Part shown: in pieces, positions 3,086-62,205 of the stretch
Numbering within the stretch: position 1 is the stretch's first letter
How the letters are laid out: each line of letters starts with the position of its first letter
DNA from: Candidatus Auribacterota bacterium
Lineage (GTDB): Bacteria; Auribacterota; Tritonobacteria; UBA1439
Reading direction: 5' to 3'
Assembly (NCBI GenBank): GCA_026392015.1
Contig: JAPLCW010000174.1
Span: 1-64,000 of the forward strand
Length of the DNA stretch: 64,000 bases
Program-made: the position numbers and the translations under genes
Notes under the pieces: generated by a model
What the model saw: the letters and a program-made list of their open reading frames with translations, nothing else
The model's database searches: none
Told to the model about the DNA's origin: nothing

Positions 3086-6000
3086 AACCCCCGGGAAAAT
3101 CAAAACTCTCCAGAAGAATATTCGTATATTTCTTTATCGTCTCGGCGCTGCCCTTGTTATTCATGGCCATTGCCAGCTATCATGTCTTCTCCCGGTCACT
3201 GGAGGAGCACATTCGCAACAAGCTGATCGCTATCAGTGACGGCCGGCAGGCGGCTCTTAAACAAACCATATACGGCATATCAAGGTTTATCACTGAAAGG
3301 GCCTCGGGCCCCACGCCCGTCACGGGATTTGAAAAATTTACCGCGGCATTTGCATCATCCGGGATTCAAAGTGAAGAACATAAAGCCCTTGATTCACATT
3401 ATAGGGAAGCGTTCCAGAGATATTTTGACGTAAACGATTATATCTACGACATGCTTTTTGTTTCAAATGAGGGAAATGTCATATTTTCGATGAAGCATGA
3501 AAGCGATTTCGGACAAAACATCAACAGCCCTCTTTTGAAAACCACGGCACTTTTCGGACTCGTGAACACCGTGAATACCGTGTTAAGCACCTCCTTTTCT
3601 GATTTTGACTTTTACCCACCGTCCCATCAAGCCGCTCTATTCGCCGCCACTCCTGCCTTTGGGGAAGGCAAATTGCTCGGTGTGATGGTACTTCAGATCA
3701 AGCCTGAAATATTTTATGCATTCGCGCAAAATTACGTCGGGTTGCCTAAAAGCGGAGAAATCACTTTCGCAAAACGCGTCGGAGATGAAGTTGTATATAC
3801 CACACCACTTCGCTTTAAACCCGATGCCGCGCTCAACTACAAGATCAAGATCGGCTCTCACATCGCCGTTCCCATGCAGAAAGCTGTCAGCGGAGAAACA
3901 GGTATCGGGTTTTCAACGGATTACCGGGGGAAAAGCGTTCTCGCCAGATGGCAATATATCCCGCAGTTGCACTGGGGCATGATCGTTAAGGTAGATACAG
4001 ATGAGGTATTCCGATCAATTCATCAGTTAAGAAATTTATATATAATTCTTTTTTGCATTCTGATAGGCCTTATTTTAATGGCCTCTTTTGTGGTCGCCCG
4101 CACTATCTGCGGTCCCATCGAAACGGTCCGCGACGGCCTGAAGATAATCGGAGGCGGCAACCTTGGCCATAGAATCAATATTGCGCGCAATGACGAGATC
4201 GGGGAGCTGGCGGAGGACGTGGGTGCGATGGCGGAAAATTTGCAGCACACGACCGCTTCCATAGATAAACTCAACAAAGAAATCACCCAGCGCAAGAAAG
4301 TCGAGGAGGCGCTTCAAGAAAGCGAGCGCACGGTTCGGGCGATCCTTGACCAGACGTTCCAGTTCATCGGACTGATGACCGTTGACGGAGTCCTAATAGA
4401 CGCAAACAAGGCGGCATTAAAATTTGCCGGGATCGAGGAATCACAGGTTTTGAACAAGCCTTTTTGGGAAACGCCCTGGTGGACACACTCAGCGGAATTG
4501 CAGAATAAACTGCGCGACGCCGTCAAGAAAGTGGCACGGGGGGAATTTATACGTTTTGAGGCGACACACATGTTGAAAGGCGGCGGCCTTCATTATGTCG
4601 ATTTTTCACTTAAACCGGTCAAGGATGACGCAGGCACCGTCATCTTTATGATCCCGGAAGGCCGCGATATTACCGACCGCAAAAAAGTGGAAGAGAGGCT
4701 GCGCAGCAGCGAGGCGTGGCTTTCCGTCACTCTCAAGAGCATCGGCGACGCGGTTATCGCCACCGATACAAAAGGCCGTATCACGTTTGTTAATCCTGTC
4801 GCCTCGCGGTTGACCGGCTGGAGTCAGGAAGAAGCGACGGGCATGCCGCTCAAAGAGGTCTTTCACATTGTCAACGAAGAGACAGGCGCGCCCGTTGAAA
4901 ATCCGGCGACCCGGGTACTGAAAGAAGGCGTGGTTGTCGGGCTTGGGAACCATACGATATTGTTAGCCAAGAACGGAACAAGGTGCCCGATCGATGACAG
5001 CGCCGCGCCTATCATGGATGACGGACAGATCATCGGAGTGGTCTTGATTTTCCGCGATATCACTGAGCGCAGGAGGGCGGAAGAAAAGATCGCGCGCGCG
5101 AACAGGGAATGGGCGAATACGTTCGATTCCATATCGGATTTTGTCTTCATCCTAAATAACGACAGCACCATTGCAAAAGTGAACAGGTCTTTTCTCGACG
5201 TCCTCCATCTGGAAGAAAAGGATGTCGTGGGCAAGAAGTGCTACGAAATTGTTCACAAGACAACAACGCCATGGCCGGAATGTCCACATCAAAAAACACT
5301 GCTCAATAGAAAGCCGCAGACGGAAGAGGTGGACGACCCGGGAGTGGGCCTGCCGCTTCAAGTCAGCGTTTCGCCGATCTTCGACGAGCAAGGCGAATTG
5401 TTAGGCTCGGTCCATATCGCCAGGGATATCAGCAGCACGAGAAAAGCGGACGCGGCACTGAGGGAATCCGAAGAGAAATACCGCAGTCTTGTGGAAAACA
5501 TGATGGACGTAATATACGCCATGGACGCCGAGGGGAAAGTGACGGCCATCAACCAGGCGGTAAAGACTAACTACGGCTACGAACCGGAGGAGGTTCTCGG
5601 CAGGAATTTTTTGGAGTTCCACAAAAAGGAAGTTTATGCCCCGGTAGTGGAAAATTTCCACCATATACTTAAGGGAGAAAAGGTTCTCGGCGAGGCCATT
5701 ATTATTGATAAACAGGGGCTGGAACATAACGTTGAATTCTCCGGGGTGCCAATAGTAAGAGATGGAATAGTCGCCGGCGTGAGAGGTATGATGAGAGATG
5801 TCACCGAACGCAAGAAGATATTGGAGCAGAAAAACAATTTTATGAATATGGTATCTCATGAGCTGAGAACGCCTTTAACTTCCATTAAGGAGGGTATTTC
5901 TCTCGTCGCGGAAGGCATCGCGGGACCTATCAACCCGCAACAAAAAGAGTTGTTGGATATCGGGAAACAAAACATCGACAGGCTCTCGCGATTGATAAAC

Positions 6001-8241: not shown

Positions 8242-9393
8242 ATGAACTACAGGGATATTCTGGATCTAGCCTGTGCCGGTATCGGGGCGGTTGCTTTTAT
8301 TCTTCTCCTCGTGAAGCGCAGCGTGAAGGTTATCGAGCGCCGCGTCGCTCTGACTCTCCTCTCCATTCTCCTCACCACGCTTGCCTACCTTCTCTACAGC
8401 GGTTACCAGTACCGGGTCTCCCCTGATTTGCTGGCGTCGCTCATGATCATCGAACTTGGGGTTTTCGCCCGAATCTACGATTCGTACAGAACCTTCCGTA
8501 GCCTCTCGGGAACGCTGCGGAATCTCGGCAATATCTATATCTTTGCGGGCGTCGTCTGCCTGCTCTCACGGAGCACAGGTTTCTCCCCGCTCCTCTGGGC
8601 GCTCCCTGTAATCCTCTTCTCGCTCGGCTATTTCTTCATGAAGAAGAGAAGGGGACTCGGAAACCTCTGCAAGGGCCTGGGAGTGCTCATATCCGTCGCC
8701 TTTGTCGCCTCAATCCTCTACGACGCGCGCGCCGGGGCAATACCCGGGCAAGGCGCAGCGCTTCTCCGGGGACACCTGCTTCCAGACATTATGAATCCTT
8801 CCTTCGTTGAGGAGCTCAACGCACTTAACAAGAAATTATCCGTCGCAGACGCTGAAAAGGCGCGCCTCTCCGAGAAACTCATCCTAACGAAAAAGGAATC
8901 CGAGAAGCTGACACAAGAGAAGAATGCGATTGAGGGGAAACTCGCGGAGATGGGCAAGGCGCGCGCGAATGAATCCTCTGAGCGGGAGACGCTCAAGACC
9001 GAGAAACAGAAGCTCCAGGAGCTCCTCAATAAAGAGACGGCAGCCAGGAACGATGCCAAGCATAAACTCGAGGAAGCAAAGGTGGCGGGCAAAGAAGGCT
9101 TCACCGCGATTGAAGAGAAACTGAAGCTCGCGGCTGACAACCTCAAGAAGGTGATGGAAGAGAAAACAGCCCTCACCGCGGAACTTCAGTCCCTCAGGGC
9201 CGCCTCACCGATGGCAACGCCCGGCTCTCAATCTGTAGATGTGCAAGAGATGAAGAAGAGACTCGCGGACAGGGAAGGAGAGCTTGCCGCCGTCACCCTG
9301 GAGAGAGATAGATTAAAGAAGATTGTCGGAAAGATCGAAGACGCACTGCCGACCGGGATGCCCTCGCCACAAGTGCCGGGGGCGGGGAACTGA
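8242..9393 (+). CDS. Membrane-anchored protein with long C-terminal coiled coil (hypothetical)
   Basis: 4-5 N-terminal hydrophobic helices, then K/E-rich heptad-like sequence (LSEKLILTKKESEKLTQEKNAIEGKLAEMGK...). No recognised catalytic motif. Confidence 0.5.
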   Translation: MNYRDILDLACAGIGAVAFILLLVKRSVKVIERRVALTLLSILLTTLAYLLYSGYQYRVSPDLLASLMIIELGVFARIYDSYRTFRSLSGTLRNLGNIYIFAGVVCLLSRSTGFSPLLWALPVILFSLGYFFMKKRRGLGNLCKGLGVLISVAFVASILYDARAGAIPGQGAALLRGHLLPDIMNPSFVEELNALNKKLSVADAEKARLSEKLILTKKESEKLTQEKNAIEGKLAEMGKARANESSERETLKTEKQKLQELLNKETAARNDAKHKLEEAKVAGKEGFTAIEEKLKLAADNLKKVMEEKTALTAELQSLRAASPMATPGSQSVDVQEMKKRLADREGELAAVTLERDRLKKIVGKIEDALPTGMPSPQVPGAGN

Positions 9394-9433
9394 GCATCTT
9401 CCGGACAGCGGATCCACTACTGATGAGGATCTT

Positions 9434-10315
9434 ATGACAGGAGCACCGAGGATCGGGATAATCGGCGGGAGCGGGCTCTACCAGATGGCGGAGATAGGGG
9501 GTCTGCGCGAGGAGCGCGTCGAGACTCCATTCGGCTCGCCCTCTGATCGCTATACCCTTGGGACATTGGCCGGACGGGAGGTTGTTTTCCTCCCCCGACA
9601 CGGCCCAGGACACCGCCTCATGCCGACGGATATCAACTACCGCGCGAATATTTTCGGGATGAAGAAGCTCGGCGTGGGCTGGATTATCGCGGTGAGCGCC
9701 GTGGGGAGCCTCCAGGAGCGTTACAGGCCGCTCGACATCGTCATCGTGGATCAGTTTTTCGATAGAACAAGCAAGAGACACTCAACCTTTTTCGAAGAGG
9801 GGCTCGTGGCGCACATCGCGTTCGCCGATCCCATCTGCGGGGCGCTCGCGCGCATCCTCTACGACGCCGGGAAGGAGATTGGCGCTCCCCTGCACATGGG
9901 AGGCACGTACGTAAATATGGAAGGTCCCGCCTTTTCGACAAAAGCGGAGGCTGCGGTATATCGCGCCATGGGGCTCGACCTCATCGGCATGACCAATCTC
10001 ACCGAGGCGAAACTCGCGCGTGAGGCGGAGATCTGCTATGCGACGATCGCGATGGTCACCGACTACGACTGCTGGCATCCCGAGCATGAGGCGGTAACTG
10101 TGGAGACCGTAGTCCGCAACCTCCGGAAGAACGCTGCGACTGCCACACAGTTGATCCTGAAGGCGATCAAGAAAGTGCCCCATCGGCAAAACTGCCCCTG
10201 CGCCAGCGCCCTTGCGGCAGCAATTATCACACAGCGCGACACGATACCGCCTGAAATCGTACTGAAGCTCCAGCCTCTCGTGGGGAAGTATTTGATGCCC
10301 GGGCAAAAAGCCTGA
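9434..10315 (+). CDS. mtnP: S-methyl-5'-thioadenosine phosphorylase (PNP family 2)
   Basis: RIGIIGGSGLY, FLPRHGPGH and INYRANIF motifs, then the CWHPEHEAVTVE region typical of MTAP. ATG at 9434 chosen by homology (the ORF-track start at 9323 adds a non-homologous leader). Confidence 0.85.
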   Translation: MTGAPRIGIIGGSGLYQMAEIGGLREERVETPFGSPSDRYTLGTLAGREVVFLPRHGPGHRLMPTDINYRANIFGMKKLGVGWIIAVSAVGSLQERYRPLDIVIVDQFFDRTSKRHSTFFEEGLVAHIAFADPICGALARILYDAGKEIGAPLHMGGTYVNMEGPAFSTKAEAAVYRAMGLDLIGMTNLTEAKLAREAEICYATIAMVTDYDCWHPEHEAVTVETVVRNLRKNAATATQLILKAIKKVPHRQNCPCASALAAAIITQRDTIPPEIVLKLQPLVGKYLMPGQKA

Positions 10316-10366
10316 AATCTGATGGGATAAAAGCCGTTTTCCGGTTTACTGCGAAAAAGGGCTTTC

Positions 10367-11002
10367 CTACTTGCCGAAGGAACTGATGCTGGTACCGGCG
10401 CTCCCGCTCGTGCTCGGGGATGAGGATGCGGTCGTGGGCGCAGAAGCGCTTGTGCCTTCGGAGCCGGCCCCCTGAGACGACGATGTTCCTCCTCGTGAAC
10501 CTTCCTTAGTCTTGCTGCGTTCATCAGACCGTTTGCGCCGTTCTTCCACGCCGCCCTTCTTTGCTATCTTTCCCGCGGCCTTGCCGCGAGCAGTGCCCGG
10601 GCGCGCGCCTCCCGGTCCCTTGGCGGCCTTGGGGCCCGGAGCGCTACCGCTGTAATAGACAGGCTCAAATGCCCGCCCGGGGTTTTGCACCCCCCCACCC
10701 TGGAAGAGCTTCCGGTTTTCCACATCAGAAGATTTGCTTATCGATTGAATGGCCCCGCGGCTCAGGAAGGTGGTGACGACCTTCCCCTTGTGGGGCATCC
10801 TGACCTTGACAAGGTTCTGCATCTCCTTGATTACCTTGCACGTGATGGTTCCTCCGTTCTTCAGCGTGATTGTGTCTGAGGAGGCACTGAGAATGAAGGC
10901 GAGGAGGACGGAGATTATGCATAGCGGGATAAAAGCCAGCCATGTGCGCCGCGCATGAATCGTCATGCCTCGATATAAAAGGGACAGTCTCATAAATCTC
11001 AT
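10367..11002 (-). CDS. Hypothetical secreted / membrane-anchored protein with low-complexity G/S/T/A-rich C-terminus
   Basis: Hydrophobic N-terminal segment (WLAFIPLCIISVLLAFIL), then a low-complexity tail. Weak call. Confidence 0.3.
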   Translation of the reverse strand: MRFMRLSLLYRGMTIHARRTWLAFIPLCIISVLLAFILSASSDTITLKNGGTITCKVIKEMQNLVKVRMPHKGKVVTTFLSRGAIQSISKSSDVENRKLFQGGGVQNPGRAFEPVYYSGSAPGPKAAKGPGGARPGTARGKAAGKIAKKGGVEERRKRSDERSKTKEGSRGGTSSSQGAGSEGTSASAPTTASSSPSTSGSAGTSISSFGK

Positions 11003-16154: not shown

Positions 16155-16803
16155 CTCCCCCTTCGCGGGGGGAGGGAATTATATTTATTTTGCCACACAA
16201 AATGCAGGAGAAGCATTAACCTGATCTATTCACCAGCTTTTAATGTTTTAACCGCGGATTAAGCGGATTACGCTGATTTGCATTGTTTAATCCGCCCAAT
16301 CCGCGAAATCTGCGGTTTCATATGTTTGGCCGTTAAAATTGCTCTTTTATTCGTCTGCTGAATAATCCAGGCTAAGCTGCTCTATTCATCAACCCGAGAT
16401 TAGCATTATCCGAATATTCGCAACATATTGCATTGCAGGGGATTGATCCTTCGGCAAGCTCAGGACAAGTTTTATCAAGCCCGTTCTCAACCCGGGTTCG
16501 ATAAATCAAACCCCTACATTACGCAGATGAATAGTCCAAGCTAAACCTTATCCCCATCCTTCCTCGCCAAAGACGAGCGAGCGTGAGGCTTGTCCGCCTT
16601 GGGCGGAGGAAGGGTCAAGGCGGGGTGTTTGTTGCGAAGTATGCCATTCTTGCACTTCGACTACGCTCAGTGCAAATTCGAGCAGAAATCCAGATTCCAT
16701 ACAGGATCCCCGCCTGCCTGCGCGAAGCCGCTTCGGCATAGGCAGGCTTCCTCGGGGATGACAATTGAACTGAACACCACCACAAGACTGACGTATTACT
16801 ACA

Positions 16804-19427: not shown

Positions 19428-19560
19428 CCTCTCCGCCGACCAGAAACTAATGCATTAGTTACAGGCGGATGTGATTCTTTTTTCTCGCAGGGGGGCCTTA
19501 ACCTGGTCTATTCATCAACTCGAGATCAGGGCGATCTCCATATCTGATAACACATTGAAT

Positions 19561-19696
19561 TGTAGGGGCTTGATCCTTCGGCAAGGTCCCTTCGACTGAG
19601 TTTATACTGAGTGTAGCCGAAGTGCTCAGGGTCTTCGACAGGACAAGTTTTATCAAGCCCGTTTTTAACGCGGGTTCGATGAATCGAACCCCTACA
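19561..19696. repeat. Palindromic element family TGTAGGGG...CCCCTACA (representative copy)
   Basis: TGTAGGGGCTTGATCC...GGACAAGTTTTATCAAGCCC...GGGTTCGATGAATCGAACCCCTACA. Other copies at ~7166-7226, 16435-16519, 30238-30311 and 30714-30793, and a fragment inside the CDS at ~18985-19095. Confidence 0.8.
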
Positions 19697-20124
19697 ATAG
19701 GGAGATGAATAAAAGAGCTATTTTAACAGCCCACCATATGTAACCGCAGATTACGCGCCTGCCTGCCGGCAGGGATTGGGCGGATTACACAATGCGAATC
19801 CGCGTAATCCGCGGTTAGAACATTAGGTTCATGTCCAAAAAAGTTGCCCATTCATACGAGGAGAGTAGTCATCCCCGCGAAAGCGGGGATCCAGAAATGC
19901 AGCTTTCTAAGCTGGATTCCTGCTTCGCATAATAGAGGGATTACGCGAGGTGATGTCAGCGGGGTGCCGGTGCAAAAAAGTATAAAATCATACAATCGCA
20001 TATTTCCAGTTGACTTCCGGAAGCGGATAGCGTATCTTGAGCGGGTTTGCTGGGCATATATCTGCCGAGTCAACTCGTTCAGGCGCCGGCGCGTTGTTAC
20101 GGTGCCAGCGAAAGGGGAGACATT

Positions 20125-20757
20125 ATGGTACAGTTGAGATCGTACGTCTTCATCGACAGTCTCCAGCCGCAGCTCGCCTCCTTCGTCGCCTCCGCAGCCA
20201 AGGGCTTCATGCCGGTTGCGGGAATGGCGTCGCTCTACGTGGAGGTGGCTCCCGGCATGGAGATCATCCGCGCGCTCGATGTGGCGCTCAAGGCGACCTC
20301 CTGCCGACCTGCGGTACAGGTAGTGGAGAGGGCCTATGGCGTCCTCGAGGTGCACTCAGAGGATAAGGGGCAGGTCATCAACGCAGGCAGGGCGATTCTC
20401 GAACATCTCGGCCTGAAGGAGGAGGACCGACTCAAGCCGAAGGTAGTCGCCACGCAGATCATCCGGCGGATCAGTCCCTACCAGTCGCAGCTCATCAACA
20501 AGGGGCGCGACGGCTCGATGCTCCTCGGAGAGCAGACGCTTTACATAATGGAAACAGATCCGGCAGCTTACGTAACGATTGCGGCCAACGAGGCGGAGAA
20601 AGCCTCGCTTGTGACGCTCATCGAAGTGCGGCCGGTCGGCCGTTTTGGCCGTCTCTACCTCGGCGGTGAGGAGAGGGACATCATGGTGGGAAGCGAGGCA
20701 GCCCTGAAGGCAATCGAGGCCATCACGGGCAAGGAACACGGCGGTAAAGGCGAATAA
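20125..20757 (+). CDS. BMC-domain-like shell protein, possibly permuted/tandem (EutL/PduB-like); assignment tentative
   Basis: RBS AAAGGGGAGA precedes the ATG. Segments GMASLYVEVAPGMEIIRALDVALKAT...VQVVERAYGVLEVHSED and LVTLIEVRPVGRFGRLYLGGEERDIMVGSEAALKAIEAI resemble BMC-fold strands. It is first gene of the microcompartment operon. Confidence 0.4.
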   Translation: MVQLRSYVFIDSLQPQLASFVASAAKGFMPVAGMASLYVEVAPGMEIIRALDVALKATSCRPAVQVVERAYGVLEVHSEDKGQVINAGRAILEHLGLKEEDRLKPKVVATQIIRRISPYQSQLINKGRDGSMLLGEQTLYIMETDPAAYVTIAANEAEKASLVTLIEVRPVGRFGRLYLGGEERDIMVGSEAALKAIEAITGKEHGGKGE

Positions 20758-20826
20758 CCACAGTGTAAGATTTAAAGTGTAAAGTGTAAGGTTGAAAAGG
20801 AAAGCGTTAGAGAAAGGGGGTAGGCG

Positions 20827-21117
20827 ATGTCAGAGGCACTGGGAATGATCGAAACGAGAGGGTTTGCAGCCATGGTTGAGGCATCGGATGCCATGGTCAA
20901 GGCCGCAAAGGTCGAGCTGGTGAGCTACGAGAAGATCGGCGGCGGTTACGTCACCGCTATCGTCCGCGGCGATGTGGCGGCCGTGCGCGCGGCGGTTGAA
21001 GCAGGGGCGCGTGGCGCCGAGAAGGTGGGAGAGCTAGTATCCGTACACGTCATACCGAGACCGCACGTCAATGTCGATGCGGTGCTGCCGCTCGGAAGGC
21101 CCACCGGGAAGGAATGA
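20827..21117 (+). CDS. BMC-H hexameric shell protein (PduA/EutM/CcmK-like)
   Basis: Canonical [29 protein letters not shown]...[13 protein letters not shown]...VHVIPRPH. Confidence 0.9.
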
Positions 21118-21222
21118 CAAATACCAAGTGACAAATGACAGAACATATTTGTTTTGTCATTTAGATTTTGTCATTTGTCATTCATTTAGTGTCTATTGTG
21201 GTTGGTGGACAAGGAGGATTCG

Positions 21223-21522
21223 ATGCTCCTGGGGAAAGTGACGGGAACCCTCGTCTCCACACAGAAGGATGAGAAACTCAGAGGTCTCAAGTTCTTCGTT
21301 GTGGAGAAACTCGATATGCAGGGGAAGCCGACGGGTACGTTCGTTATCGCGGCTGATTCTGTGGGGGCGGGCGTGGGAGAGGTTGTGATATACGTCTCCG
21401 GAAGTTCCGCCCGCTACACCGCCTCTACGGAGGGGAAGCCGGCGGACGCGACCATCATCGGGATCGTCGACACGTGGGACCTCAACGGGAAGGCGCAGTA
21501 CCAAAAATCAGAGGAAAGGTAA
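21223..21522 (+). CDS. BMC-P pentameric vertex protein (EutN/PduN/CcmL family)
   Basis: MLLGKVTGTLVSTQKDEKLRGLKFFVV...GAGVGEVVIYVSGSSAR. AGGAGG RBS lies 8 nt upstream of the ATG at 21223. Confidence 0.85.
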   Translation: MLLGKVTGTLVSTQKDEKLRGLKFFVVEKLDMQGKPTGTFVIAADSVGAGVGEVVIYVSGSSARYTASTEGKPADATIIGIVDTWDLNGKAQYQKSEER

Positions 21523-21653
21523 TGCCTCAGCCACAGGGTGATCATACCCCCCACCCTGACCCTCCCCTCAAAGGGGGGAGGGGAATAAGGTTTGATTGCA
21601 TTCCGAGACTGAAGCATTGCGAGGAACGAGCCTGACGGCTCATGGAGTAGCGC

Positions 21654-23084
21654 ATGAATCTCACCGAGGCTCAGATTGCGGCCATAGTGGAAAATGTCAT
21701 CAACCGGCTCTCCACTGAGGGGGCTTTTGAGAAAGCCGCCGAGGGGGGGACGGCTGCAGGGGATGGTGTCTTCTCAGACATCGAATCAGCCCTCAGGGCT
21801 GCGGAACTCGCCCAGCGCGAGCTCGATGCACAGACACTCGATATGCGTCGCAAGGCCATCGCCGTTCTCAGGCGTACTGTCGAGGAAAATGTCCAAACTC
21901 TCTCCCGCATGGCAATCGAGGAAACCGGCATCGGTCGCTACGAAGACAAGATAAAGAAGAACCTCTGCGTCGCCCAGCTCACGCCGGGGACCGAAGACCT
22001 GCAACCGATCGCCTTCACCGGCGACCATGGGCTCACGCTCATCGAGCGCGCCCCCTATGGGGTGATCGGGTCGATCACTCCCTGCACCAACCCTTCTGAG
22101 ACGATCATCTGCAATGCAATTGGGATGATCGCCGGCGGGAACTCGGTCGTTTTCAACCCTCACCCCGGCGCCAAAGAGACATCCGCCTACACCATCAGGC
22201 TCCTCAACAAGGCGATCGTCGCCGTCGGGGGCCCCAGGAACCTGCTCTGCAGTATCGCCGATCCGACGCAGGAAACGGCTCAAGAGATGATGAAGCATCC
22301 GAAGGTCAAGCTCCTGGTAGTCACCGGGGGCCCGGGAGTGGTGAAGGCCGCCATGAACAGCGGCAAGAAGGCGATCTGCGCGGGTCCGGGAAACCCGCCG
22401 GTCGTGGTCGACGAGACCGCGGATATCGCGAAGGCCGGAAAAGATATCGTCGCGGGAGCATCCCTCGACAACAATATCATCTGCATAGACGAGAAGGAGG
22501 CGATCGTCGTCGACTCCGTTGCGGACGCGCTCAAGAGCGAAATGAAAAAACACGGAGTCCATGAACTCACGGGCCGCGACATCGGCAGGATCACGGATCT
22601 GGTGATTAAGGAGCGGCATCCCGCGCCGCATGAGAGCGTCGCGAACAAGAAATGGGTCGGAAAGGATGCGGCGGTCATCCTCAAGGAACTGGGAATCAGC
22701 GCGCCGCCGGACCTGCGATTGATCCTTGTCGAGGTCGAGCGTGACCACCCGCTGCTCTGGACAGAGCAGCTAATGCCGGTCTTCCCCCTCACGAGGGTCC
22801 GAAGTTCCGACGAGGGGATCGATCTCGCCGTCGAGATGGAGCACGGTTTTCGTCACACGGCGTCGATGTTCTCGAGAAATATCGAGAAGCTCTCCAGGAT
22901 GGCACGGATGATCAACTGTTCCATCTTTGTGAAGAATGGCCCGAACTATGCGGGGCTCGGCTTGGGCGGGGAGGGCTACACCTCGTTCAGTATCGCAAGC
23001 CCGACCGGCGAGGGTCTTACCTCGGCGAAGGACTTCACGCGCGTGCGCCGATGCACCCTGGTGGATTACTTCCGGATCGTCTGA
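21654..23084 (+). CDS. CoA-acylating aldehyde dehydrogenase (PduP/EutE-like) with N-terminal amphipathic helix
   Basis: ALDH fold with the catalytic Cys in DNNIICIDEKEA, and GPGNPPVVVDETAD. N-terminus MNLTEAQIAAIVENVINRL has the character of an encapsulation peptide. Confidence 0.85.
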   Translation: MNLTEAQIAAIVENVINRLSTEGAFEKAAEGGTAAGDGVFSDIESALRAAELAQRELDAQTLDMRRKAIAVLRRTVEENVQTLSRMAIEETGIGRYEDKIKKNLCVAQLTPGTEDLQPIAFTGDHGLTLIERAPYGVIGSITPCTNPSETIICNAIGMIAGGNSVVFNPHPGAKETSAYTIRLLNKAIVAVGGPRNLLCSIADPTQETAQEMMKHPKVKLLVVTGGPGVVKAAMNSGKKAICAGPGNPPVVVDETADIAKAGKDIVAGASLDNNIICIDEKEAIVVDSVADALKSEMKKHGVHELTGRDIGRITDLVIKERHPAPHESVANKKWVGKDAAVILKELGISAPPDLRLILVEVERDHPLLWTEQLMPVFPLTRVRSSDEGIDLAVEMEHGFRHTASMFSRNIEKLSRMARMINCSIFVKNGPNYAGLGLGGEGYTSFSIASPTGEGLTSAKDFTRVRRCTLVDYFRIV

Positions 23085-23107
23085 CGCCGCGGCAGGTTCC
23101 ACTTAAA

Positions 23108-23460
23108 CCACTGGGGACACTGAAGCAACATCAATAGATTCAAGGTGGCTATATTTTTTAGATTCCCTTGCATTTTGTGTGCGTGCACTGCATTCTCCTC
23201 CCCCCTTGAGGGGGAGGAAGAAGGTGGGGGGTATTGCAAAGGCAGATATGCTACCCATTACATTGGATGGAGTTACAATGAGTATCCGTTATCCATTCCT
23301 CACCCCCACCCTTACCCTCCCCCTTCGGAGGGGGGGGATAAGAAATTTGCCCACACAAAGTGGAAGAGAACCCTTTTTAAATCAGCGTAATCCGCGGTTC
23401 GAACCGTTATCGTAACGAAGTTAGTCTCTGTTTCAGTGCGCTCAGTGTCCTCAGTGGTTA
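23108..23460. repeat. MITE-like element with terminal inverted repeats, inside the BMC operon
   Basis: AACCACTGGGGACACTGAAGC at the left end and its reverse complement GCGCTCAGTGTCCTCAGTGGTTA at the right end. The interior holds GC-rich UUCG-loop hairpins and a CCGCGGATT motif. Confidence 0.6.
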
Positions 23461-23484
23461 ATCAACAAATAGTGCAGTGCGTCG

Positions 23485-24828
23485 GTGGTGCAATACATTA
23501 TGAGCGTGACCCTCGTTGAAAAAGTCAAACGCGCCGGTGTCGTGGGCGCCGGCGGAGCCGGGTTCCCCACCTGGAAAAAGATCGCCGCCCGCGTCGACTA
23601 CGTGGTCGCCAACGGCGCCGAGTGCGAACCTCTCCTCCATAACGACCAGTACATCATGTCTCGTGAGTCCGAGCGGGTCGTCAAAGGCGTAGAGCTTGTT
23701 ATGCAGGCAACGGGCGCAAAGAAGGGCATCATCGCGCTCAAAGAAAAATATCCGGATGCCGTGGCGGCGTTCCGCCACACCCTGAAAAAGAAGGAACATC
23801 TCACCCTCTCTTTTCTTCCGAACAGCTACCCGGCCGGGGATGAGTTCGTCCTCGTGTACGAGACCACGGGGCGCGTGATACCGGAGTCGGGACTCCCGCT
23901 CGATGTGGGAGTGGTCAACAGCAACGTGGAGACGTTCAAGAATGTCGCGGATGCGGACGAGGGAGTTCCGGTGACCGAGCGATACGTCACCGTCACCGGA
24001 GCGGTGCGTCATCCCGTCGTTCTCCAGGCGCCGATCGGCACGAGTTTTGCGGATCTTGTTTCCGCTGCCGGGGGCGCTGCCGTTGAGGAATATGCGCTCA
24101 TGATGGGAGGAATCATGATGGGAAAGCTCTCCTATGACCTCTCCCAGCCGGTGACCAAAACCACGGGCGCCATCATCCTTCTCCCGACCGACCATTTGCT
24201 CGTCAGGAGACGCACGGTTCCGTTCATGAGCAGTCTCCACGTGACGAGGGAGTTCTGCTGCCAGTGCACCCTCTGCACGCTCATCTGTCCTCGTTACCTG
24301 CTCGGACATGAATTGTACCCGCACCTGATCATGCGCTCGGTGCTGTTCGGCCTGCCCTTTCCCGAGCGCGGCGGGGTTACCTCCGCGCACCTCTGCTGCG
24401 AGTGTGAGCTCTGCGGGCTCTACATCTGCCCGATGAACCTCCCGATCGCGCGCATCAACGGCAATATCAAACGAAACCTGGAAGCCCTCGGGTGGGAAGC
24501 GCAGAAAAAGTGCGAATCCCCGAAACCGCGCCTTCTTCGGGAGCAGTCCCGCATTCTCGCGGACCGTCTCGTCTATCGCCTCGGCCTCAGCGCGTACAAA
24601 GGGAAGGTCCCGTTCCAGGAAAAGCAGCTTCAGCCGAGGCGGGTGAAAATACCGCTCAAGCAGAACGCGGGGGCCCCCGCGACTCCGTGTGTGAAGGTGG
24701 GCCAGAGGGTAAAACGGGGACAGGTCATCGGAGAGATCCCCGAGGGGAAACTGGGCGCCCGGCATCACGCAAGCATCAGCGGCGTGGTAAAAGAGGTGAA
24801 AGACTTTATTCTCATCGAAGCCGCATAG
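23485..24828 (+). CDS. RnfC/PduS-like flavin- and Fe-S-binding oxidoreductase
   Basis: GVVGAGGAGFPTWKK nucleotide-binding motif and two Cys clusters (CCQCTLCTLICP, CCECELCGLYICP). The ORF-track start is a GTG; an ATG at 23500 is an alternative. Confidence 0.75.
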   Translation: MVQYIMSVTLVEKVKRAGVVGAGGAGFPTWKKIAARVDYVVANGAECEPLLHNDQYIMSRESERVVKGVELVMQATGAKKGIIALKEKYPDAVAAFRHTLKKKEHLTLSFLPNSYPAGDEFVLVYETTGRVIPESGLPLDVGVVNSNVETFKNVADADEGVPVTERYVTVTGAVRHPVVLQAPIGTSFADLVSAAGGAAVEEYALMMGGIMMGKLSYDLSQPVTKTTGAIILLPTDHLLVRRRTVPFMSSLHVTREFCCQCTLCTLICPRYLLGHELYPHLIMRSVLFGLPFPERGGVTSAHLCCECELCGLYICPMNLPIARINGNIKRNLEALGWEAQKKCESPKPRLLREQSRILADRLVYRLGLSAYKGKVPFQEKQLQPRRVKIPLKQNAGAPATPCVKVGQRVKRGQVIGEIPEGKLGARHHASISGVVKEVKDFILIEAA

Positions 24829-24880
24829 TATGCGTGACGGCGTATCGGCGTGATAAATGACGTGCCAAAGAGCACATAAA

Positions 24881-24953
24881 GGATTACAGCGCGTAACTGC
24901 GGATTGGATGGACTACCGTAAAGAATCCGCCTAATCCGCGCAATCCGCGGTTA
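24881..24953. repeat. Palindromic element family TTAACCGCGGATTACGC (representative copy)
   Basis: Units of GGATTN3GCG with inverted symmetry and ends like TTAACCGCGGATT / AATCCGCGGTTAA. Further copies at ~16250-16320, 19741-19818, 23385-23412, 25828-25860, 40425-40455, 41685-41730, 41975-42009 and 63855-63985. Confidence 0.8.
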
Positions 24954-24978
24954 AAACATTAAAGGTGTCTGAACAGTC

Positions 24979-25527
24979 ATGGAACCGGCAATAGGATTAA
25001 TCGAGTTTAACAGCATCGCTTCCGGCATCCTCGCGACAGACGCCATGGCCAAGAAGTCCAGTGTCACCGTGGTCGATTCGCGGAGCATCTGCCCGGGGAA
25101 ATACATCGTGCTGATCACGGGCGATGTCGAAGCTGTCCAGCAGTCGCTTGACGCGGGACTCCAGGCCGGTGGAGGAGCAGTAACTGAGAAACTCCTCCTG
25201 CCGAACGTCCACGAGCAGGTGGTGCCGGCTCTCATCGCGGCAACTCCTGTTCACAAGATAGAGGCGCTGGGAGTCATCGAGACATTCAACGCGCCCGCCT
25301 GTATCGTTGCCGCGGATGCCGCGGCAAAGGCGACCGAGGTCCAACTCGTGCTCATCAGGGTGGGGAACGGCCTCGGGGGAAAATCATTTGTCGTCATCAC
25401 GGGCGAGTGGGTGAACGTGGAGGCCGCGGTTGCGGCGGGCATCGAGCGGATCAAGGGAATGGGAGCGCTTGTGCGGCGGATCGTAATCCCGAACCCGCAT
25501 GTCGATTTGAACAGCTTTATTCTGTAA
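24979..25527 (+). CDS. Tandem-BMC-domain shell protein (BMC-T, PduT-like)
   Basis: Two BMC domains (AIGLIEFNSIASGILATDAMAKKSSV... and ALGVIETFNAPACIVAADAAAKATEV...). Length and order match PduT. Confidence 0.85.
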   Translation: MEPAIGLIEFNSIASGILATDAMAKKSSVTVVDSRSICPGKYIVLITGDVEAVQQSLDAGLQAGGGAVTEKLLLPNVHEQVVPALIAATPVHKIEALGVIETFNAPACIVAADAAAKATEVQLVLIRVGNGLGGKSFVVITGEWVNVEAAVAAGIERIKGMGALVRRIVIPNPHVDLNSFIL

Positions 25528-25737
25528 AAAGATGACAAAGCATATCTAACCTGGATTATTCACGAGGCGCCCGTAGTAAAAGGGACATAACCACTGAGGC
25601 AATGAATATACTGAATGTTTGGACGCAGATTTGCGCAGATGAACGCAGATTAACAAAAGAAGCAGATTGAACCCTTGAGGTTTTAACCGCAAGCTGTATT
25701 TGTATCTGCGTGTTCTGTTGGGCGGATTAAAGAGGCA

Positions 25738-25826
25738 CATGCAACCACGGATGAACACGGATGAACACCGAACAGCAGAAGGAGCATTTGAACCGTGTTA
25801 ATCCGTGTTCATCCGTGGTTCAAAAT
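25738..25826. repeat. Palindromic element family CACGGATGAACAC / GTGTTCATCCGTG (representative copy)
   Basis: AACCACGGATGAACACGGATGAACAC...GTGTTAATCCGTGTTCATCCGTGGTT. Related copies at ~30470-30500, 30607-30640, 51127-51150, 53990-54140 and 60150-60220. Confidence 0.75.
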
Positions 25827-25882
25827 TTTTCAATCCGCGCAATCCGCGGTTAAGACTTTAATATTTCGTCTTTTATCCAATT

Positions 25883-26656
25883 ATGAAATCCGAACGTGAA
25901 CACCGTCAGGACATTGTGGAGGTTTGCCGCCGTATGTACTCCCGCGGTTTCATTTCCGGGAGCGACGGCAACGTGAGCATTCGCCTCGCCGCGGACCGGA
26001 TCCTGAGCACGCCGAGCGGGATCAACAAAGGGTTCCTCGCGCCATCGGATATGATCGTCACGGACATGGGAGGCAAAAAGCTCATCGGGGCTCACAAACC
26101 GACCACCGAACTCCGCATGCACCTCGAAACATATCGGAAGCGGCCCGACGTCAAGGCAGTGATCCACGCGCACCCTCCTTTCACCATCGCCTTCTCTCTG
26201 GCAGGCCAGAAGCTCCCGCAGTGCGTGATGCCGGAAATCATAATGATATTCGGCTCCATCCCCACGACAGCGTATGCAACCCCCTGCACGGAGGAGGGGC
26301 CGGAGGCGATCTCCGCGCTCATCGAGGAGTGCGATGCCCTCATCATCGAACGCCACGGCACGCTCACGGTCGGCGACACCGTGTACGGGGCGTACGATAA
26401 GCTGGAGAAGGTCGAGCACAGCGCCCAGGTGAGCGCCACAGCCCGGCAGCTCGGCCCCGTGAAGCCGCTGTCCAAGGAACAGATTCAGAAACTCCTCGAC
26501 CTCAGAGAGCAGCTCGGACTGAAGGGAAAGATATATCCCTGCAACCAGTGCGGGATGTGCGCGCCGCGCGAGGGCGGGACCAAGGCTGACCCGCTCGTGA
26601 ACTCCCTCTCCGCCGAGCTGTTCGCCACGCTACGGGAGAAACTGCGCAATGGCTAG
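25883..26656 (+). CDS. Class II aldolase (FucA/RhaD-like) with ~45-aa C-terminal extension
   Basis: GNVSIR, HAHPP and a GxxxxH metal-ligand pattern. The extension carries CNQCGMC and a terminal amphipathic helix (LSAELFATLREKLRNG). Confidence 0.8.
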   Translation: MKSEREHRQDIVEVCRRMYSRGFISGSDGNVSIRLAADRILSTPSGINKGFLAPSDMIVTDMGGKKLIGAHKPTTELRMHLETYRKRPDVKAVIHAHPPFTIAFSLAGQKLPQCVMPEIIMIFGSIPTTAYATPCTEEGPEAISALIEECDALIIERHGTLTVGDTVYGAYDKLEKVEHSAQVSATARQLGPVKPLSKEQIQKLLDLREQLGLKGKIYPCNQCGMCAPREGGTKADPLVNSLSAELFATLREKLRNG

Positions 26657-26939
26657 AAAGACCGTTCCCCCCGCACAGGTGAAGCGCGAATCCCCTCACT
26701 ACCCCGAGGTAATGACGATCGAGCAGGCCGCCGAGTACCTCCACCTGCACAAGCAGGTTGTCTATCGCCATGTCAAGAAGGGCAACATCCCCGCGAGCCG
26801 GATCGGATCGACCATCCGATTCAAAAAGTCCGTCATCGATGCATGGCTCGAGGATTCAGCCCTGCGCAGCCTGCACAGGGCCGAGGAACGAAAACCCGAA
26901 GCGCCGCGCGCGGAGAAAGAAAAGTTCGTCTGGGAATGA
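26649..26939 (+). CDS. Small helix-turn-helix DNA-binding protein (excisionase/MerR-like)
   Basis: MTIEQAAEYLHLHKQVVYRHVKKGNIPASRIGSTIRFKKSVIDAWL is a typical HTH_17-like segment. It overlaps the aldolase stop. Confidence 0.55.
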   Translation: MARKTVPPAQVKRESPHYPEVMTIEQAAEYLHLHKQVVYRHVKKGNIPASRIGSTIRFKKSVIDAWLEDSALRSLHRAEERKPEAPRAEKEKFVWE

Positions 26940-30146: not shown

Positions 30147-31383
30147 CCGCTCATTATACTCATTCCTTTCGCACTACAGACTCCCCCTCAAAATCGGGCA
30201 GTGGTTCAATTCGACCAAGCATATAGTTTCTCTACGATGTAGGGGCGTGATGAACTTGTCCTGAGCGAAGTCGAAGGATCACGCCCGGGTTCGATAAATC
30301 GAACCCCTACAAATCAACGCTCCCCAGAATGACCCACTACCCATAATCGCTTATGTCTGGCAAGCAAAGATGGTAGGCCTGAATGGCGGATAACAAATCA
30401 AAACGTTGACCTGGTGTAATGCGTCAGTTACGCTGGGGGCTGCTGACTTTGTCCGGACATGCATATTTTTATTCTAACCACGGATAAACAATGTGGGAGC
30501 GGCTTCCAGCCGCGATAATCGGGGCGAGGACGCACCTCCCACAGTATGCTCTTATCTTGATAGCTTGATAGCTCGATAGCTAAATTGCTCTCCTCCCCCC
30601 TCCCACAATTGAACTACGTGAGACAATCCGTGTTCATCCGTAATTTATATACTCCTGTCAAACTGCCCCATGACTATCTGGTGGATGACATTTAATAAGG
30701 AGTATTTCTCGTCGTAGGGGCTTAATTTATCACGCCCGCCAAACGGATCGGATAAAACTTGTCCTGAGCCTGCCGAAGGATCCAACCCCTACATTATTCG
30801 CCGTTTCGAGTGTAGAATGGTCCAGAAGAAAGCAGAAAACACCAAGAATTGTATACAAACTGCATACAAAGTATACATACTTGACACAATAGAATGTATA
30901 CTGAGTATGCAAGGCCATTTCTCGCTAGCTAATATTTCGCAAAATACAGTTTAATCCTATAGATAACTACCTAGCATTAAAGGAGTTGCATTTGATAAAA
31001 TAAATATCACCAAAACCTACAAATTGGCATGAAATTTGCTACCTTCCTAGGGTATGAGAGTGATACCCACTTATTCAGAAGCTGACTTGGGCAAAAGAAC
31101 TCCAATGCTCCCGATAATTCAAAGGGCGTCATATAGCGGGCATAAGGGTTTGAGTACAGTAGTGGGTTGCGTATTGACTGATGCTGATAACTGTTGTATT
31201 ACATTTAATAAGCGCCATGCAATATGTAACTGCAATCCAGCCTTGGCGACAGAAGCCATCCATCAACAGCACTCGAGGGATTGCCTCGTCCTCCCGCACC
31301 TTGCAATAGCATAATAGCGCAGCTCATCTTTTATCCTGCGCATACATTGTAATCGGGACTTGTCTCAGGAAAGGAAGAAGCAA

Positions 31384-41656: not shown

Positions 41657-42059
41657 GCCCCCGCCCGATCCGGTTATATCAACTATTAATGTTTTTAACC
41701 GCGGATTATGCTGATTACGCGGATTCTTGTTTGGGCTCTTGCAGGATTTTTGTGAATAAGTAGATGGGAGGACGCTACATAACATCCTATTCGCAATTAA
41801 GATATTGCTGAGCCGCCATCCCGTATGCCCTCTCCCCTCCGAAGGGGAGAGGCATGGTGAGGGGTGAATCCGCATGGACCACCTTCACACCCCCACCCTC
41901 GCCCTCCCCCTTCGGAGGGGGAGGGGTATGGCCCACGTCCTTTCTTCACAAAAATCTGGCTTGAGCCCTTGTTTGTAATCCGCCCAATCCGCGAAATCCG
42001 CGGTTTCATGCCTTGATCTGCTGAAATTACCTATGTATATTTCTGAATAATAACCCGGA

Positions 42060-53705: not shown

Positions 53706-54251
53706 CGTAGTCCTCCATGATAGAGTATGCAGTTATAGCCACTATCCGCCTAATTATTCCATACTCTATCATGACTCCGCTACCTGTCAACCCCTTTCTG
53801 TAAAAAAGCCAACCCTCTTCCGATTGGGACGATTGAACCGATCACGATACCAATCAGTCACTTACGACAATAAATCCCTTCTTCGTGCTTTGCCGTCAAA
53901 CTCTTGCTTCAATCCTCTGATGATAGAGTATGAAACTGGCATTCGTCGTAACTCCTTGATAATCAACCACCCAACGGTTGTTTGTGATCATAGCGGATTT
54001 TTATTATAACCACGGATAAACACGGATTAACATAGAATCACGTAACACAATCTGTGTTCATCCCTGCCGCCGGGCAGGCGGGGTTATCTGTGTTCATCTG
54101 TGATGATCGTCTAAGCTTAATGCGCGACACAGATGAACACAGATCCCGGAATGCCGGAAATTCAAACTAAAAATCCCCCGCTTGGCATTAAGTAGTACGC
54201 GGTAAGCTATACGTAAAATGCTTACAACTTATTGATTACAACTTACGGCTG

Positions 54252-54385
54252 GTAAGGGGTCACTTATGGGTGGTACATTGCTGAATATGTCATTCCTGCG
54301 AAAGCAGGAATCCAGGTTTCATAATGGATCCCCGCTTTCGCGGGGATGACAAGCGAAATGGATACCACCCATAAGTGACCCCTTA
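54252..54385. repeat. Palindromic ~135-bp element (family GGGGTCACTTATGG...), copy 1
   Basis: Ends TAAGGGGTCACTTATGGGTGGTA / TACCACCCATAAGTGACCCCTTAC, with inner hairpins GTCATTCCTGCGAAAGCAGGAATCCA and ATCCCCGCTTTCGCGGGGATGAC. A second copy is at 59722-59870. A solo-end copy is at ~11140-11180 and a diverged copy at ~16560-16800. Confidence 0.8.
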
Positions 54386-57117: not shown

Positions 57118-57941
57118 GGTGTCAGAACTCCCTTATTCATTGCACGCAAAAGTATTATGACTTAATTATTACCTGATCGGGGGCGGCCCGGTGGTTTTTT
57201 CTCTGTCCTTAACACGTCCTTCTGAAGTCCCTCCAGATAGCTATCAGAACTAAAATGGCTCTGGCCGCCAAGGCTTTTCCTGATAAGAGCCGCTTTGCTT
57301 TCCTCTAGCGGAACCGAAACGATCCTTTTGTAGTTCTCAATTCTCTCTGCCATTGTTCGCCCCAGACTCAAGAAAGTTGGATTATCTTCCTTATCGATCA
57401 ATTCATCTTCCTCCATTATTACGTTCGCGCGATAGCTTGAATAATGGTATTTACCCGGATGATCTACCAGACCGGCCCGCACCGGATTTTGCTCGATGTA
57501 GCGCATGAGCGCCAAAAAATAGTCATCAGTACTGACAATGGGACTCTTAAACCTTCCTTGCCAGACATGGCCGGAGGATTTGTATTTATGGTGATAGCGA
57601 CGCGTATGCGCAATGGTTATTGCCTTCATGATATCGCTCACGGTACCCATGGAAGAAGTCTTGATCAAAAGATGAATATGATTTTTCATAAGGCAATAGG
57701 CGAAGATCTTAAAATTAAATTTATGCTTATATCTTTTTAGGATGCCAAGGTAGTGCAGATAATCGTGGTCTTCCAGAAATACATCCTGACGATTATTGCC
57801 GCGATTGAGGATGTGATGATTCAGATTCGGCAGATGTATTCTGATGGGGCGTCCCATACACTAAGCATATCAAAAAAGGCGCCAGAGCAATAATTAATTT
57901 ATATTGCATTGCGGCACAAGCAATTATCGAGTTCTGACACC
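57118..57941. mobile_element. RAYT / IS200-like unit bounded by imperfect inverted repeats
   Basis: GGTGTCAGAACTC at 57118-57130 and GAGTTCTGACACC at 57929-57941, plus about 40 bp of further partial symmetry, enclose the Y1 transposase gene. Confidence 0.55.
57162..57857 (-). CDS. REP-associated tyrosine transposase (RAYT; IS200/IS605-like Y1 HUH transposase)
   Basis: HUH motif NHIHLLI; GHVWQGRFKS; Tyr region YHYSSYRA. 231 aa. Confidence 0.8.
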   Translation of the reverse strand: MGRPIRIHLPNLNHHILNRGNNRQDVFLEDHDYLHYLGILKRYKHKFNFKIFAYCLMKNHIHLLIKTSSMGTVSDIMKAITIAHTRRYHHKYKSSGHVWQGRFKSPIVSTDDYFLALMRYIEQNPVRAGLVDHPGKYHYSSYRANVIMEEDELIDKEDNPTFLSLGRTMAERIENYKRIVSVPLEESKAALIRKSLGGQSHFSSDSYLEGLQKDVLRTEKKPPGRPRSGNN

Positions 57942-59671: not shown

Positions 59672-59678
59672 TGCGCTT

Positions 59679-61180: not shown

Positions 61181-61265
61181 CTTGACCTCAGTTGTAAGTT
61201 GTACGCAGTAAGTTGTACAGCTATTTTCGGCTTATAACTTATAGCTTATGGCTTACTGCTGCTTT

Positions 61266-62204: not shown

Positions 62205-62205
62205 G

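Follow-up and report, generated by a model that had tools for sequence, protein, structure and literature searches.

An aldolase and aldehyde dehydrogenase microcompartment locus of the HO/SPU5-like kind in Candidatus Auribacterota

Genes and gene products of the locus

We have analysed a 64,000-nucleotide stretch of DNA from a Candidatus Auribacterota bacterium (contig JAPLCW010000174.1, positions 1 to 64,000; hereafter the window), which carries a bacterial microcompartment (BMC) locus of the metabolosome type. Within positions 20047–26939 eight genes lie on the same strand and encode, in order, a BMC-Tdp shell protein (Tdp), the shell proteins BMC-H and BMC-P, a CoA-acylating aldehyde dehydrogenase (AldDh), homologues of PduS and PduT, a class II aldolase and an HTH_17 DNA-binding protein (Table 1). 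All eight open reading frames (ORFs) are intact. Clustered BMC-H and BMC-P genes adjoined by a CoA-acylating dehydrogenase of family PF00171 are the mark of a metabolosome locus, and the class II aldolase is the only candidate for the aldehyde-generating enzyme. The eight genes keep their order, with different flanking genes, in three other Auribacterota lineages, so that chance is excluded and the locus is real and conserved. The closest homologues belong to Candidatus Aureabacteria (renamed Candidatus Auribacterota), a member of the PVC group, and a 4.6-kb contig from sequencing run SRR20698648 (L001) is 100% identical to window positions 19926–24470. An earlier, sequence-only reading of this DNA had described an aldolase-type metabolosome here; every gene that it named lies where it had placed it, and the families that it proposed for searching (PF00936, PF03319, PF00596, PF00171 and RnfC_N) were all matched. 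The polyhedral organelle enclosing the enzymes is predicted here from the genes.

Table 1 Features of the metabolosome locus and its intergenic regions (positions in the window)
Feature	Position	Strand	Length	Basis and remarks
Upstream non-coding region	19428-20124	+		palindromic repeats; sigma-70-like site 20010-20038; ribosome binding site AAAGGGGAG immediately ahead of the first ATG of Tdp
BMC-Tdp shell protein, CcmP/CsoS1D type	20125-20757	+	210 aa	tandem permuted BMC domains; PDB phmmer, NCBIfam
BMC-H hexamer shell protein	20827-21117	+	96 aa	PF00936 2.3e-31
BMC-P pentamer (vertex) protein	21223-21522	+	99 aa	EutN_CcmL PF03319 8.6e-31
CoA-acylating aldehyde dehydrogenase	21654-23084	+	476 aa	Aldedh PF00171 4e-37
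AldDh-PduS intergenic gap, repeat-like insertions	23085-23499		415 nt	117 nt in closest relative L002
PduS-type flavo-iron-sulfur protein (MNdh)	23500-24828	+	442 aa	counted from ATG 23500; ORF opens at GTG 23485
PduT-type BMC-Ts (BMC-T^SE)	24979-25527	+	182 aa	two PF00936 domains, 1.4e-43
PduT-aldolase intergenic gap, dispersed repeats	25528-25882		355 nt	48 nt in relative L002
Class II (FucA-family) aldolase	25883-26656	+	257 aa	Aldolase_II PF00596 4.9e-47
HTH_17 (excisionase/MerR-like) DNA-binding protein	26649-26939	+	96 aa	PF12728 4.5e-16; TIGR01764

The first gene falls below the Pfam BMC threshold (22.6 bits against a cut-off of 24.5), as expected of BMC domains that are circularly permuted. 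Compared with solved structures, its product matches CcmP (5lsr) with an E-value of 1.1e-74 over residues 2–207 and ~60% identity over the full length, followed by HO-5816 (3e-69) and CsoS1D (3e-52), and more than 7,800 of its homologues carry the CsoS1D_N domain (PF27545). It had been read as an extra and atypical shell gene; full-length homology to solved CcmP, at an identity that makes a structure prediction needless, confirms the BMC fold and identifies an ordinary BMC-Tdp of the CcmP/CsoS1D type. In the phmmer search of the PDB the protein scores 253 bits with CcmP as against 180 bits with CsoS1D, and its E68–R69 pair aligns with E69–R70 of CcmP, which we take to be the gating residues of the CcmP pore. 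Judged by its scores it is CcmP-like and not the CcmP equivalog of beta-carboxysomes, because the NCBIfam CcmP model gives 293 bits where the equivalog cut-off is 340, and no carboxysome genes are present. The other two shell proteins are closest to those of Haliangium ochraceum (HO): the best natural PDB match of BMC-H is HO-5815 (1.2e-43), about 10 orders of magnitude better than EutM/PduA, and the best PDB match of BMC-P is the HO BMC-P of 5v74 (1.6e-26).

The AldDh is of the EutE/PduP type, passing the NCBIfam model NF011927 (PRK15398) with 672 bits against a cut-off of 403, and its catalytic Cys motif, NNIICIDEKE, begins at residue 273. Residues 3–20 (nt 21660–21713) correspond to a helix that is kept across orthologues and collinear relatives and is followed by an Ala/Gly/Pro-rich linker, the length of which varies among orthologues; by this architecture the N-terminus is a putative targeting signal, that is, an encapsulation peptide (EP).

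In the PduS homologue the domains Complex1_51K (PF01512, 1.6e-45), SLBB (PF10531), Fer4_17 (PF13534) and, at the C-terminus, RnfC_N (PF13375) occur in the canonical PduS/MNdh order. A Gly-rich motif of the form GxGGxGF is found at residue 16 (GAGGAGF), and Cys motifs follow at residues 253 (CxxCxxCxxxCP) and 299 (CxxCxxCxxxxCP); orthologues are 438–442 residues long. The PduT homologue is best matched in the PDB by 3nwg (7.7e-52) and by PduT (3pac/3n79), with the Cys aligned, and its pore motif C38-P-G-K-Y fits the BMC-T^SE definition C-P/S/A-G-K/R/S-Y/F (PMC6325248). Domain order, both Cys motifs and pore Cys38 thus bear out the PduS-like and PduT-like assignments made from the sequence. A 2024 study of the Clostridium botulinum GRM1 pair, using assays, electron paramagnetic resonance and voltammetry, showed that MNdh/BMC-T^SE oxidises NADH within the shell and sends the electrons out; the PduS/PduT pair occurs without an alcohol dehydrogenase in 361 catalogued loci (PMC11275729). 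No difference from that module was detected at the level of sequence: the four-domain architecture, the Gly-rich motif and the two Cys motifs are shared, as are the adjacent Ts with a CPGK pore, the presence of an AldDh and the absence of an alcohol dehydrogenase. A PduS/PduT pair without B12 chemistry or alcohol dehydrogenase, which had seemed odd, is therefore a published module for recycling NAD+ (PMC11275729).

The aldolase keeps the Zn ligands and catalytic Glu of its family (E76, H95, H97 and H158, invariant in 32 homologues), and E118 is also invariant. Its best PDB match is 6btd (8.5e-24), followed by FucA (~1e-20). The C-terminus is extended by a motif C220-x2-C223-x2-C226 (nt 26540–26560), a disordered linker and a helix at residues 237–256 (nt 26591–26650). 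In the AlphaFold2 model (pLDDT 86) confidence is low from about residue 211, including the CxxCxxC motif, and drops below 50 for residues 227–236, after which the helix is formed; this terminal helix is likely an EP. A Cys-rich linker, often CxxCxxC, with a terminal helix is found in nearly all BMC-linked class II aldolases (L017–L096), across several locus types, and the Cys motif may bind a metal or an Fe-S cluster, or act as a redox switch. The search for EPs among homologues, suggested together with the first description, shows EP-like extensions in both enzymes, namely the conserved 18-residue N-terminal motif of the AldDh and the helix that follows the linker of the aldolase. A relative of the aldolase that is not BMC-linked, in a Spirochaetaceae metagenome-assembled genome (L079, a 582-residue ORF from position 1780), appears, when read by eye, to be fused to a C-terminal MtnA-like domain, which hints at a role of that aldolase branch in a dihydroxyacetone phosphate (DHAP) shunt.

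Conservation in Auribacterota and the satellite shell genes

The eight-gene cluster recurs in unchanged order in a Ca. Aureabacteria species (L002), in Ca. Tritonobacter lacicola (L008) and in GCA_964584165 (L010), in which Tdp is 90%, 73% and 72% identical, respectively. The flanking genes differ in each of the four lineages, while the cluster genes, ~66–79% identical in DNA across lineages, retain their order and protein sequences. In all four lineages, with differing genes downstream, the HTH_17 gene closes the cluster; this constant place and its well-conserved sequence show that it is part of the cluster. Its ATG (26649) overlaps the aldolase stop codon (26654–26656) by 8 nt, an overlap already remarked on in the sequence-only reading. 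Its product is a putative regulator of the locus. A link to the ABC-2/Wzt exporter genes further downstream was considered and rejected, as only in the Aureabacteria lineage, and in neither L008 nor L010, do these come after the cluster.

Only one BMC-P is encoded in the window, and Pfam scans of the other large ORFs revealed no further shell genes in the 64 kb besides those of the locus. A contig from the same sequencing run as L001 (L014) has the gene order P-P-P-ProRS-BKACE and opens with a 41-nt repeat of which the window has a copy, and long contigs of relatives (L015, positions 9313–10584, and L016) carry a satellite locus H-P-P-P-ProRS-BKACE, near a Bmp-type ABC transporter and a gene of the nucleoside-phosphorylase family. 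Most likely, then, the organism has a satellite BMC-P triplet away from the main locus, and to call the locus compact, as had been done, was an overstatement, the shell gene set being split. One contig of a relative, L007, might be taken for a variant locus Tdp-H-P-P-P. It is 98–100% identical to the main locus in every 100-nt block through the end of BMC-H and beyond that point (10990–11000) is unrelated to it, L002 serving for the comparison, continuing instead with three BMC-P genes and then ProRS. As the identity stops exactly after BMC-H we have set the variant aside; L007 is probably an assembly switch into the satellite via the duplicated BMC-H gene, a real rearrangement being the alternative.

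Short dispersed palindromic repeats resembling REP or MITE elements lie in the upstream region and in both large intergenic gaps (Table 1) as well as at 24921–24963, and the gap between PduT and the aldolase contains an inverted repeat (25743–25768/25795–25820). Further copies are found in the window at 16241–16533, 30286–30312, 41693–42005, 54008–54350 (including 54325–54350), 59799–59824 and 63855–63985. In a scan for promoters and terminators the counts were no higher than in shuffled sequences, so transcription signals are not established, and an Rfam scan found no riboswitch ahead of the operon. The only Rfam match in the window is a cobalamin riboswitch (59495–59684, minus strand, 83 bits) upstream of an ORF of 465 residues with no Pfam match (57951–59348, minus strand), beside which lies a NikR-CbiM-PDGLE metal-uptake cluster (60204–62622, minus strand). 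An IS200-type transposase gene is located at 57162–57857.

A further reading is that of a locus in decay, or incomplete, from which an organelle is no longer formed. The gaps swollen by repeats, the transposase genes in the window and a canonical core lacking both phosphotransacylase (PTAC) and alcohol dehydrogenase would be in keeping with decay. Against this, the ORFs are uninterrupted, their functional residues are kept, and order and proteins are conserved across lineages that have diverged in their cluster DNA; moreover, incomplete enzyme cores are normal for the HO, MIC and SPU types in the BMC catalogue of Sutter et al. (2021). We regard a remnant as very improbable.

Proposed mechanism and candidate substrates

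Absent enzymes were sought over the 64-kb window by Pfam scans of all large ORFs and by tblastn with Neomoorella PTAC, acetate kinase (Ack) and FGGY seeds. The window contains no PduL/PTAC, no acetate kinase and no alcohol dehydrogenase (including Fe-type alcohol dehydrogenases), so that what had been noted as missing from the operon is missing from the whole window; sugar kinases and isomerases are likewise lacking there.

With this gene content, we think it fairly probable that we are dealing with the main locus of an HO/SPU5-like catabolic metabolosome that works in four steps. A ketose-1-phosphate would enter the shell, plausibly through the gated pore of the CcmP-like Tdp; the catalogue proposes that CcmP/CsoS1D-like Tdp pores carry sugar phosphates. 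The encapsulated, Zn-dependent class II aldolase would cleave it into DHAP and a short-chain aldehyde, which the EP-tagged AldDh would convert to an acyl-CoA with formation of NADH, the aldehyde being kept out of the cytosol. The PduS flavoprotein would then oxidise the NADH, passing electrons through two [4Fe-4S] clusters and regenerating NAD+ without an alcohol dehydrogenase, and the electrons would pass on to a [4Fe-4S] cluster held by Cys38 in the pore of the PduT trimer and from there to a cytosolic acceptor. Because no phosphotransacylase is encoded, either the acyl-CoA would have to pass out through the shell and free CoA pass in, or the CoA step would fall to an unlinked enzyme. The shell would be built from the H, P, Tdp and Ts proteins of the locus together with the three BMC-P of the satellite, to which the relatives add a second BMC-H. 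In this scheme we infer the direction of the reaction, the identities of the sugar phosphate and the aldehyde, the path of the electrons, the CoA traffic and the role of the regulator; candidate substrates are fuculose- or rhamnulose-1-phosphate, 5-deoxy- or 5-methylthio-ribulose-1-phosphate and ribulose-1-phosphate.

Several observations weigh against this scheme. Aldol cleavage itself we infer from the conserved FucA-type residues; the aldolase lies under every NCBIfam equivalog cut-off (the best FucA models give 78–114 bits where 250–400 are needed), and among its top NCBIfam models a decarboxylase (OtnC) and an epimerase score like several aldolases; in addition, Tyr113 of FucA is not conserved in the alignment. 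By a simple measure the hydrophobic moments of the two putative targeting helices are only average (0.30 and 0.38), and for this reason the EP assignments rest on architecture and conservation; of the dehydrogenase described at the outset as PduP/EutE-like with an N-terminal amphipathic helix, the family and the conserved helix hold, while the hydrophobic moment lends the amphipathic character no particular support. The assignment of the BMC-P triplet contig to the same genome depends on the common sequencing run and the common 41-nt repeat. Upstream pathway genes (kinase, isomerase or transporter) were not found in the window, and the absence of PTAC, Pta, alcohol dehydrogenase and DeoC is a statement about the 64 kb and not about the rest of the genome.

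A different source of the aldehyde is implied by the only published comment on Auribacterota BMCs, a 2022 study that found shell genes in Ca. Tritonobacter and proposed DNA degradation via DeoC without analysing the locus (PMC9324843). The organelle would then be of the SPU kind and serve deoxyribose from nucleic acids, DeoC encoded elsewhere producing acetaldehyde and glyceraldehyde 3-phosphate from deoxyribose-5-phosphate and the class II aldolase being accessory. For HO the catalogue makes a like suggestion, and the type nearest in composition, SPU5, has PF01791 in 4 of 8 loci; a P triplet plus an extra P, a CcmP-like Tdp and a PduS-linked Ts also match SPU2, and the transporter and phosphorylase-family genes near the relatives' satellite would be in line with a nucleoside source. 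However, the locus, the window and all four Auribacterota versions lack both PF01791 (DeoC) and PF02502 (RpiB), and the enzyme that bears the targeting extension, kept in every collinear locus, is the class II aldolase. The gene content of the locus thus does not support the DeoC proposal, and we consider a deoxyribose organelle unlikely.

The four-step scheme could also operate on a by-product of nucleoside or S-adenosylmethionine metabolism, with 5-deoxyribulose-1-phosphate, 5-methylthioribulose-1-phosphate or ribulose-1-phosphate giving acetaldehyde, methylthioacetaldehyde or glycolaldehyde, respectively. The best solved match of the aldolase, 6btd, is presumably the 5-deoxyribulose-1-phosphate aldolase of B. 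thuringiensis, a haloarchaeal ribulose-1-phosphate aldolase model also matches, and the MtnA-like fusion of the relative described above points the same way, although all of these family matches are far under their cut-offs. A PNP_UDP_1 nucleoside/methylthioadenosine phosphorylase gene is situated at 9323–10315 (plus strand), ~10 kb upstream of the cluster, and a homologue occupies 3686–4558 (minus strand) in L002, ~5.4 kb upstream. The phosphorylase nevertheless stands outside the cluster and is missing in the ±10-kb flanks of the clusters of Tritonobacter (L008/L009) and of L010/L011, and no isomerase or kinase is nearby; its link to the aldolase substrate is speculative. A substrate of this particular kind seems to us improbable.

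Comparison with collinear loci and catalogued types

An aldolase profile scan of species genomes gave at least 80 loci, which were typed by tblastn, to make 98 loci in all (L001–L098); there were no Auribacterota genomes among the matches listed. The closest collinear locus outside the phylum, L018, has the order RpiR-Tdp-H-P-AldDh-PduS-Ts-P-P-aldolase, without PTAC. In place of the terminal HTH_17 gene an RpiR-type regulator (HTH_6 and SIS domains; 3665–4549) precedes the locus, and its SIS domain fits a phosphosugar inducer in general. Loci of Phycisphaerales and Hydrogenedentes follow the order of L018 without PduS and also lack PTAC. In the Hydrogenedentes version (L012 and L013) the AldDh has 436 residues and no N-terminal peptide and is preceded by an ORF of 143–165 residues with no Pfam match (L012, 10516–11013; L013, 5255–5686), and a Zn-type alcohol dehydrogenase stands in place of PduS. 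A second set of collinear loci begins with PTAC: PTAC-H-H-P-AldDh-PduS-Ts-P-P-aldolase in Ca. Eisenbacteria (L031, L021 and L039) and PTAC-H-P-AldDh-P-P-aldolase-Ack in Latescibacterota (L053, L056 and L061). They share with our locus the backbone H-P-AldDh-(PduS-Ts)-P-P-aldolase, and their AldDh is 48–58% identical to the one studied here, whereas PTAC comes first, some have a terminal acetate kinase and none has a Tdp; here Tdp comes first and there is no PTAC.

Collinear loci that are otherwise alike thus begin with one or the other of these two genes. Of the 98 loci, 19 have PTAC, all of them without a Tdp in the surrounding 10 kb, and 7 distinct lineages carry Tdp in the locus, all of them without PTAC, in a small and phylogenetically non-independent sample that covers ±10 kb around the loci. 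The catalogue runs largely parallel: Tdp is listed without PTAC for SPU3, SPU5, SPU6, HO and MIC2/3/6/7, and also for SPU2 apart from a few loci with PTAC, and PTAC without Tdp for SPU1/4/7, MIC4, MUF2/3 and FRAG7; a preprint on archaeal BMCs adds one more such case. This exclusion is compatible with a Tdp that serves the exchange of CoA and acyl-CoA. We therefore raise, as a tentative idea that is somewhat doubtful as it stands, a two-enzyme metabolosome design, shared by this locus and its collinear relatives, in which PduS/PduT would replace the alcohol dehydrogenase and a gated Tdp, exchanging acyl-CoA and CoA as well as sugar phosphates, would replace PTAC.

In a neighbour-joining tree three Auribacterota aldolases (window, L002 and L008) cluster with the enzyme of L018, a locus of matching gene order, and that of L010 falls in a neighbouring clade near Hydrogenedentes, with Myxococcota sequences close by. 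The Auribacterota enzymes are apart from those of Acidobacteria, Neomoorella, Ignavibacteriae and Clostridia. By the catalogue descriptions the Acidobacteria loci of the order aldolase-H-P-P-P fit ACI, those of Neomoorella MUF3 and those of Ignavibacteriae MIC4.

The tree bears on a further possibility, a PVM-type organelle for fucose or rhamnose in which L-fuculose-1-phosphate or L-rhamnulose-1-phosphate would be cleaved to DHAP and L-lactaldehyde, the latter being converted to lactyl-CoA. The host belongs to the PVC group and FucA is among the better matches of the aldolase. On the other hand, PTAC, acetate kinase and the kinases and isomerases of fucose or rhamnose are absent from the 64 kb, as is a lactaldehyde reductase, which is said to be part of the PVM pathway as Erbilgin described it in 2014. 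The shell proteins BMC-H and BMC-P are best matched by those of HO, Tdp and Ts are present, and the aldolase lies near the sequences of Hydrogenedentes, Myxococcota and L018 and at a distance from those Clostridia loci in which aldolase, AldDh, PTAC and PduS/PduT occur together. Moreover, a study of Ace Lake lists fucose and rhamnose degradation for another phylum and not for its Auribacterota genomes (PMC9324843). In the catalogue a PF00596 aldolase is the signature enzyme of PVM, MUF2 comprises AldDh, PTAC and a PF00596 aldolase, and PVM has the same enzyme set, with PvmG as the acetate kinase homologue (Sutter et al. 2021). The resemblance to PVM loci that had been pointed out from the sequence therefore holds for the class II aldolase as signature enzyme, the acylating AldDh and the PVC-group host, and fails for PTAC (PF06130) and acetate kinase; the nearest relatives found for the shell proteins and the aldolase are in HO-like and collinear loci. 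We judge fucose or rhamnose degradation of the PVM type to be rather unlikely and retain the HO/SPU5-like scheme.

The range of the HO/SPU5-like aldolase metabolosomes now includes, through this locus, the uncultured phylum Candidatus Auribacterota of the PVC group. With a consistent gene order in four loci, two cargo enzymes and an electron-export module, the Auribacterota versions make a convenient minimal system, one that bears on the substrate of the HO-type organelles, the main structural model of the field, and on the recycling of CoA in metabolosomes without a phosphotransacylase, a question made testable by the complementarity of Tdp and PTAC. The known picture of how such organelles work is unchanged by the locus.

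Filing under SPU5 or HO was by catalogue descriptions and best matches; the catalogue supplements have no Auribacterota or Aureabacteria entry. Exact matches to MIC3, MIC4, MIC7, MUF2, MUF3, ACI and FRAG7 are ruled out by composition. SPU5, as described in Supplementary Data 2 of the catalogue (Sutter et al. 2021), has an AldDh with an N-terminal EP that is closest to that of HO, a PF00596 aldolase with a C-terminal EP in 5 of 8 loci, one BMC-H, a BMC-P triplet, a PduS-associated BMC-Ts with a pore Cys and, in half of the loci, a Tdp; no PTAC is listed. Our locus agrees in both putative EPs, the single standard BMC-H, the PduS-linked Ts with its pore Cys and the lack of PTAC. It differs in the host (Proteobacteria and one Chloroflexi for SPU5), in the Tdp, which is of the CsoS1D clade in SPU5 and CcmP-like here, in the BMC-P genes, two of the three triplet genes most likely lying in the satellite together with an extra P, and a second BMC-H being present in relatives, and in having an appended HTH_17 gene and no PF01791. 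The sequence-only reading had left room for an exact match to a catalogued type; what is found is closeness to SPU5 with several differing features. Its view that an aldolase combined with PduS/PduT, and with neither alcohol dehydrogenase nor PTAC, is unusual cannot be kept, as the catalogue has this combination for SPU5 and in part for HO.

The likeness to HO (Haliangium ochraceum and relatives, type II) is seen in the proteins themselves, HO proteins being the best PDB matches of BMC-H and BMC-P and, after CcmP, of Tdp. HO loci likewise have an AldDh with an N-terminal EP and a PF00596 aldolase that is sometimes extended at the C-terminus, lack PTAC and have PduS/T in a few genomes, and the CxxCxxC motif of the aldolase is common to our locus and the Myxococcota homologues. 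HO, in contrast, has two Tdp and, in most genomes, a structural BMC-Ts without a PduS partner, where the locus has a PduT-like Ts with PduS in the operon; neither the CsoS1D-clade Tdp of SPU5 nor the two Tdp of HO are found, there being a single CcmP-like Tdp. Taken together, these comparisons make the Auribacterota locus a further member of the HO/SPU5-like aldolase and aldehyde dehydrogenase microcompartments and not a new type.

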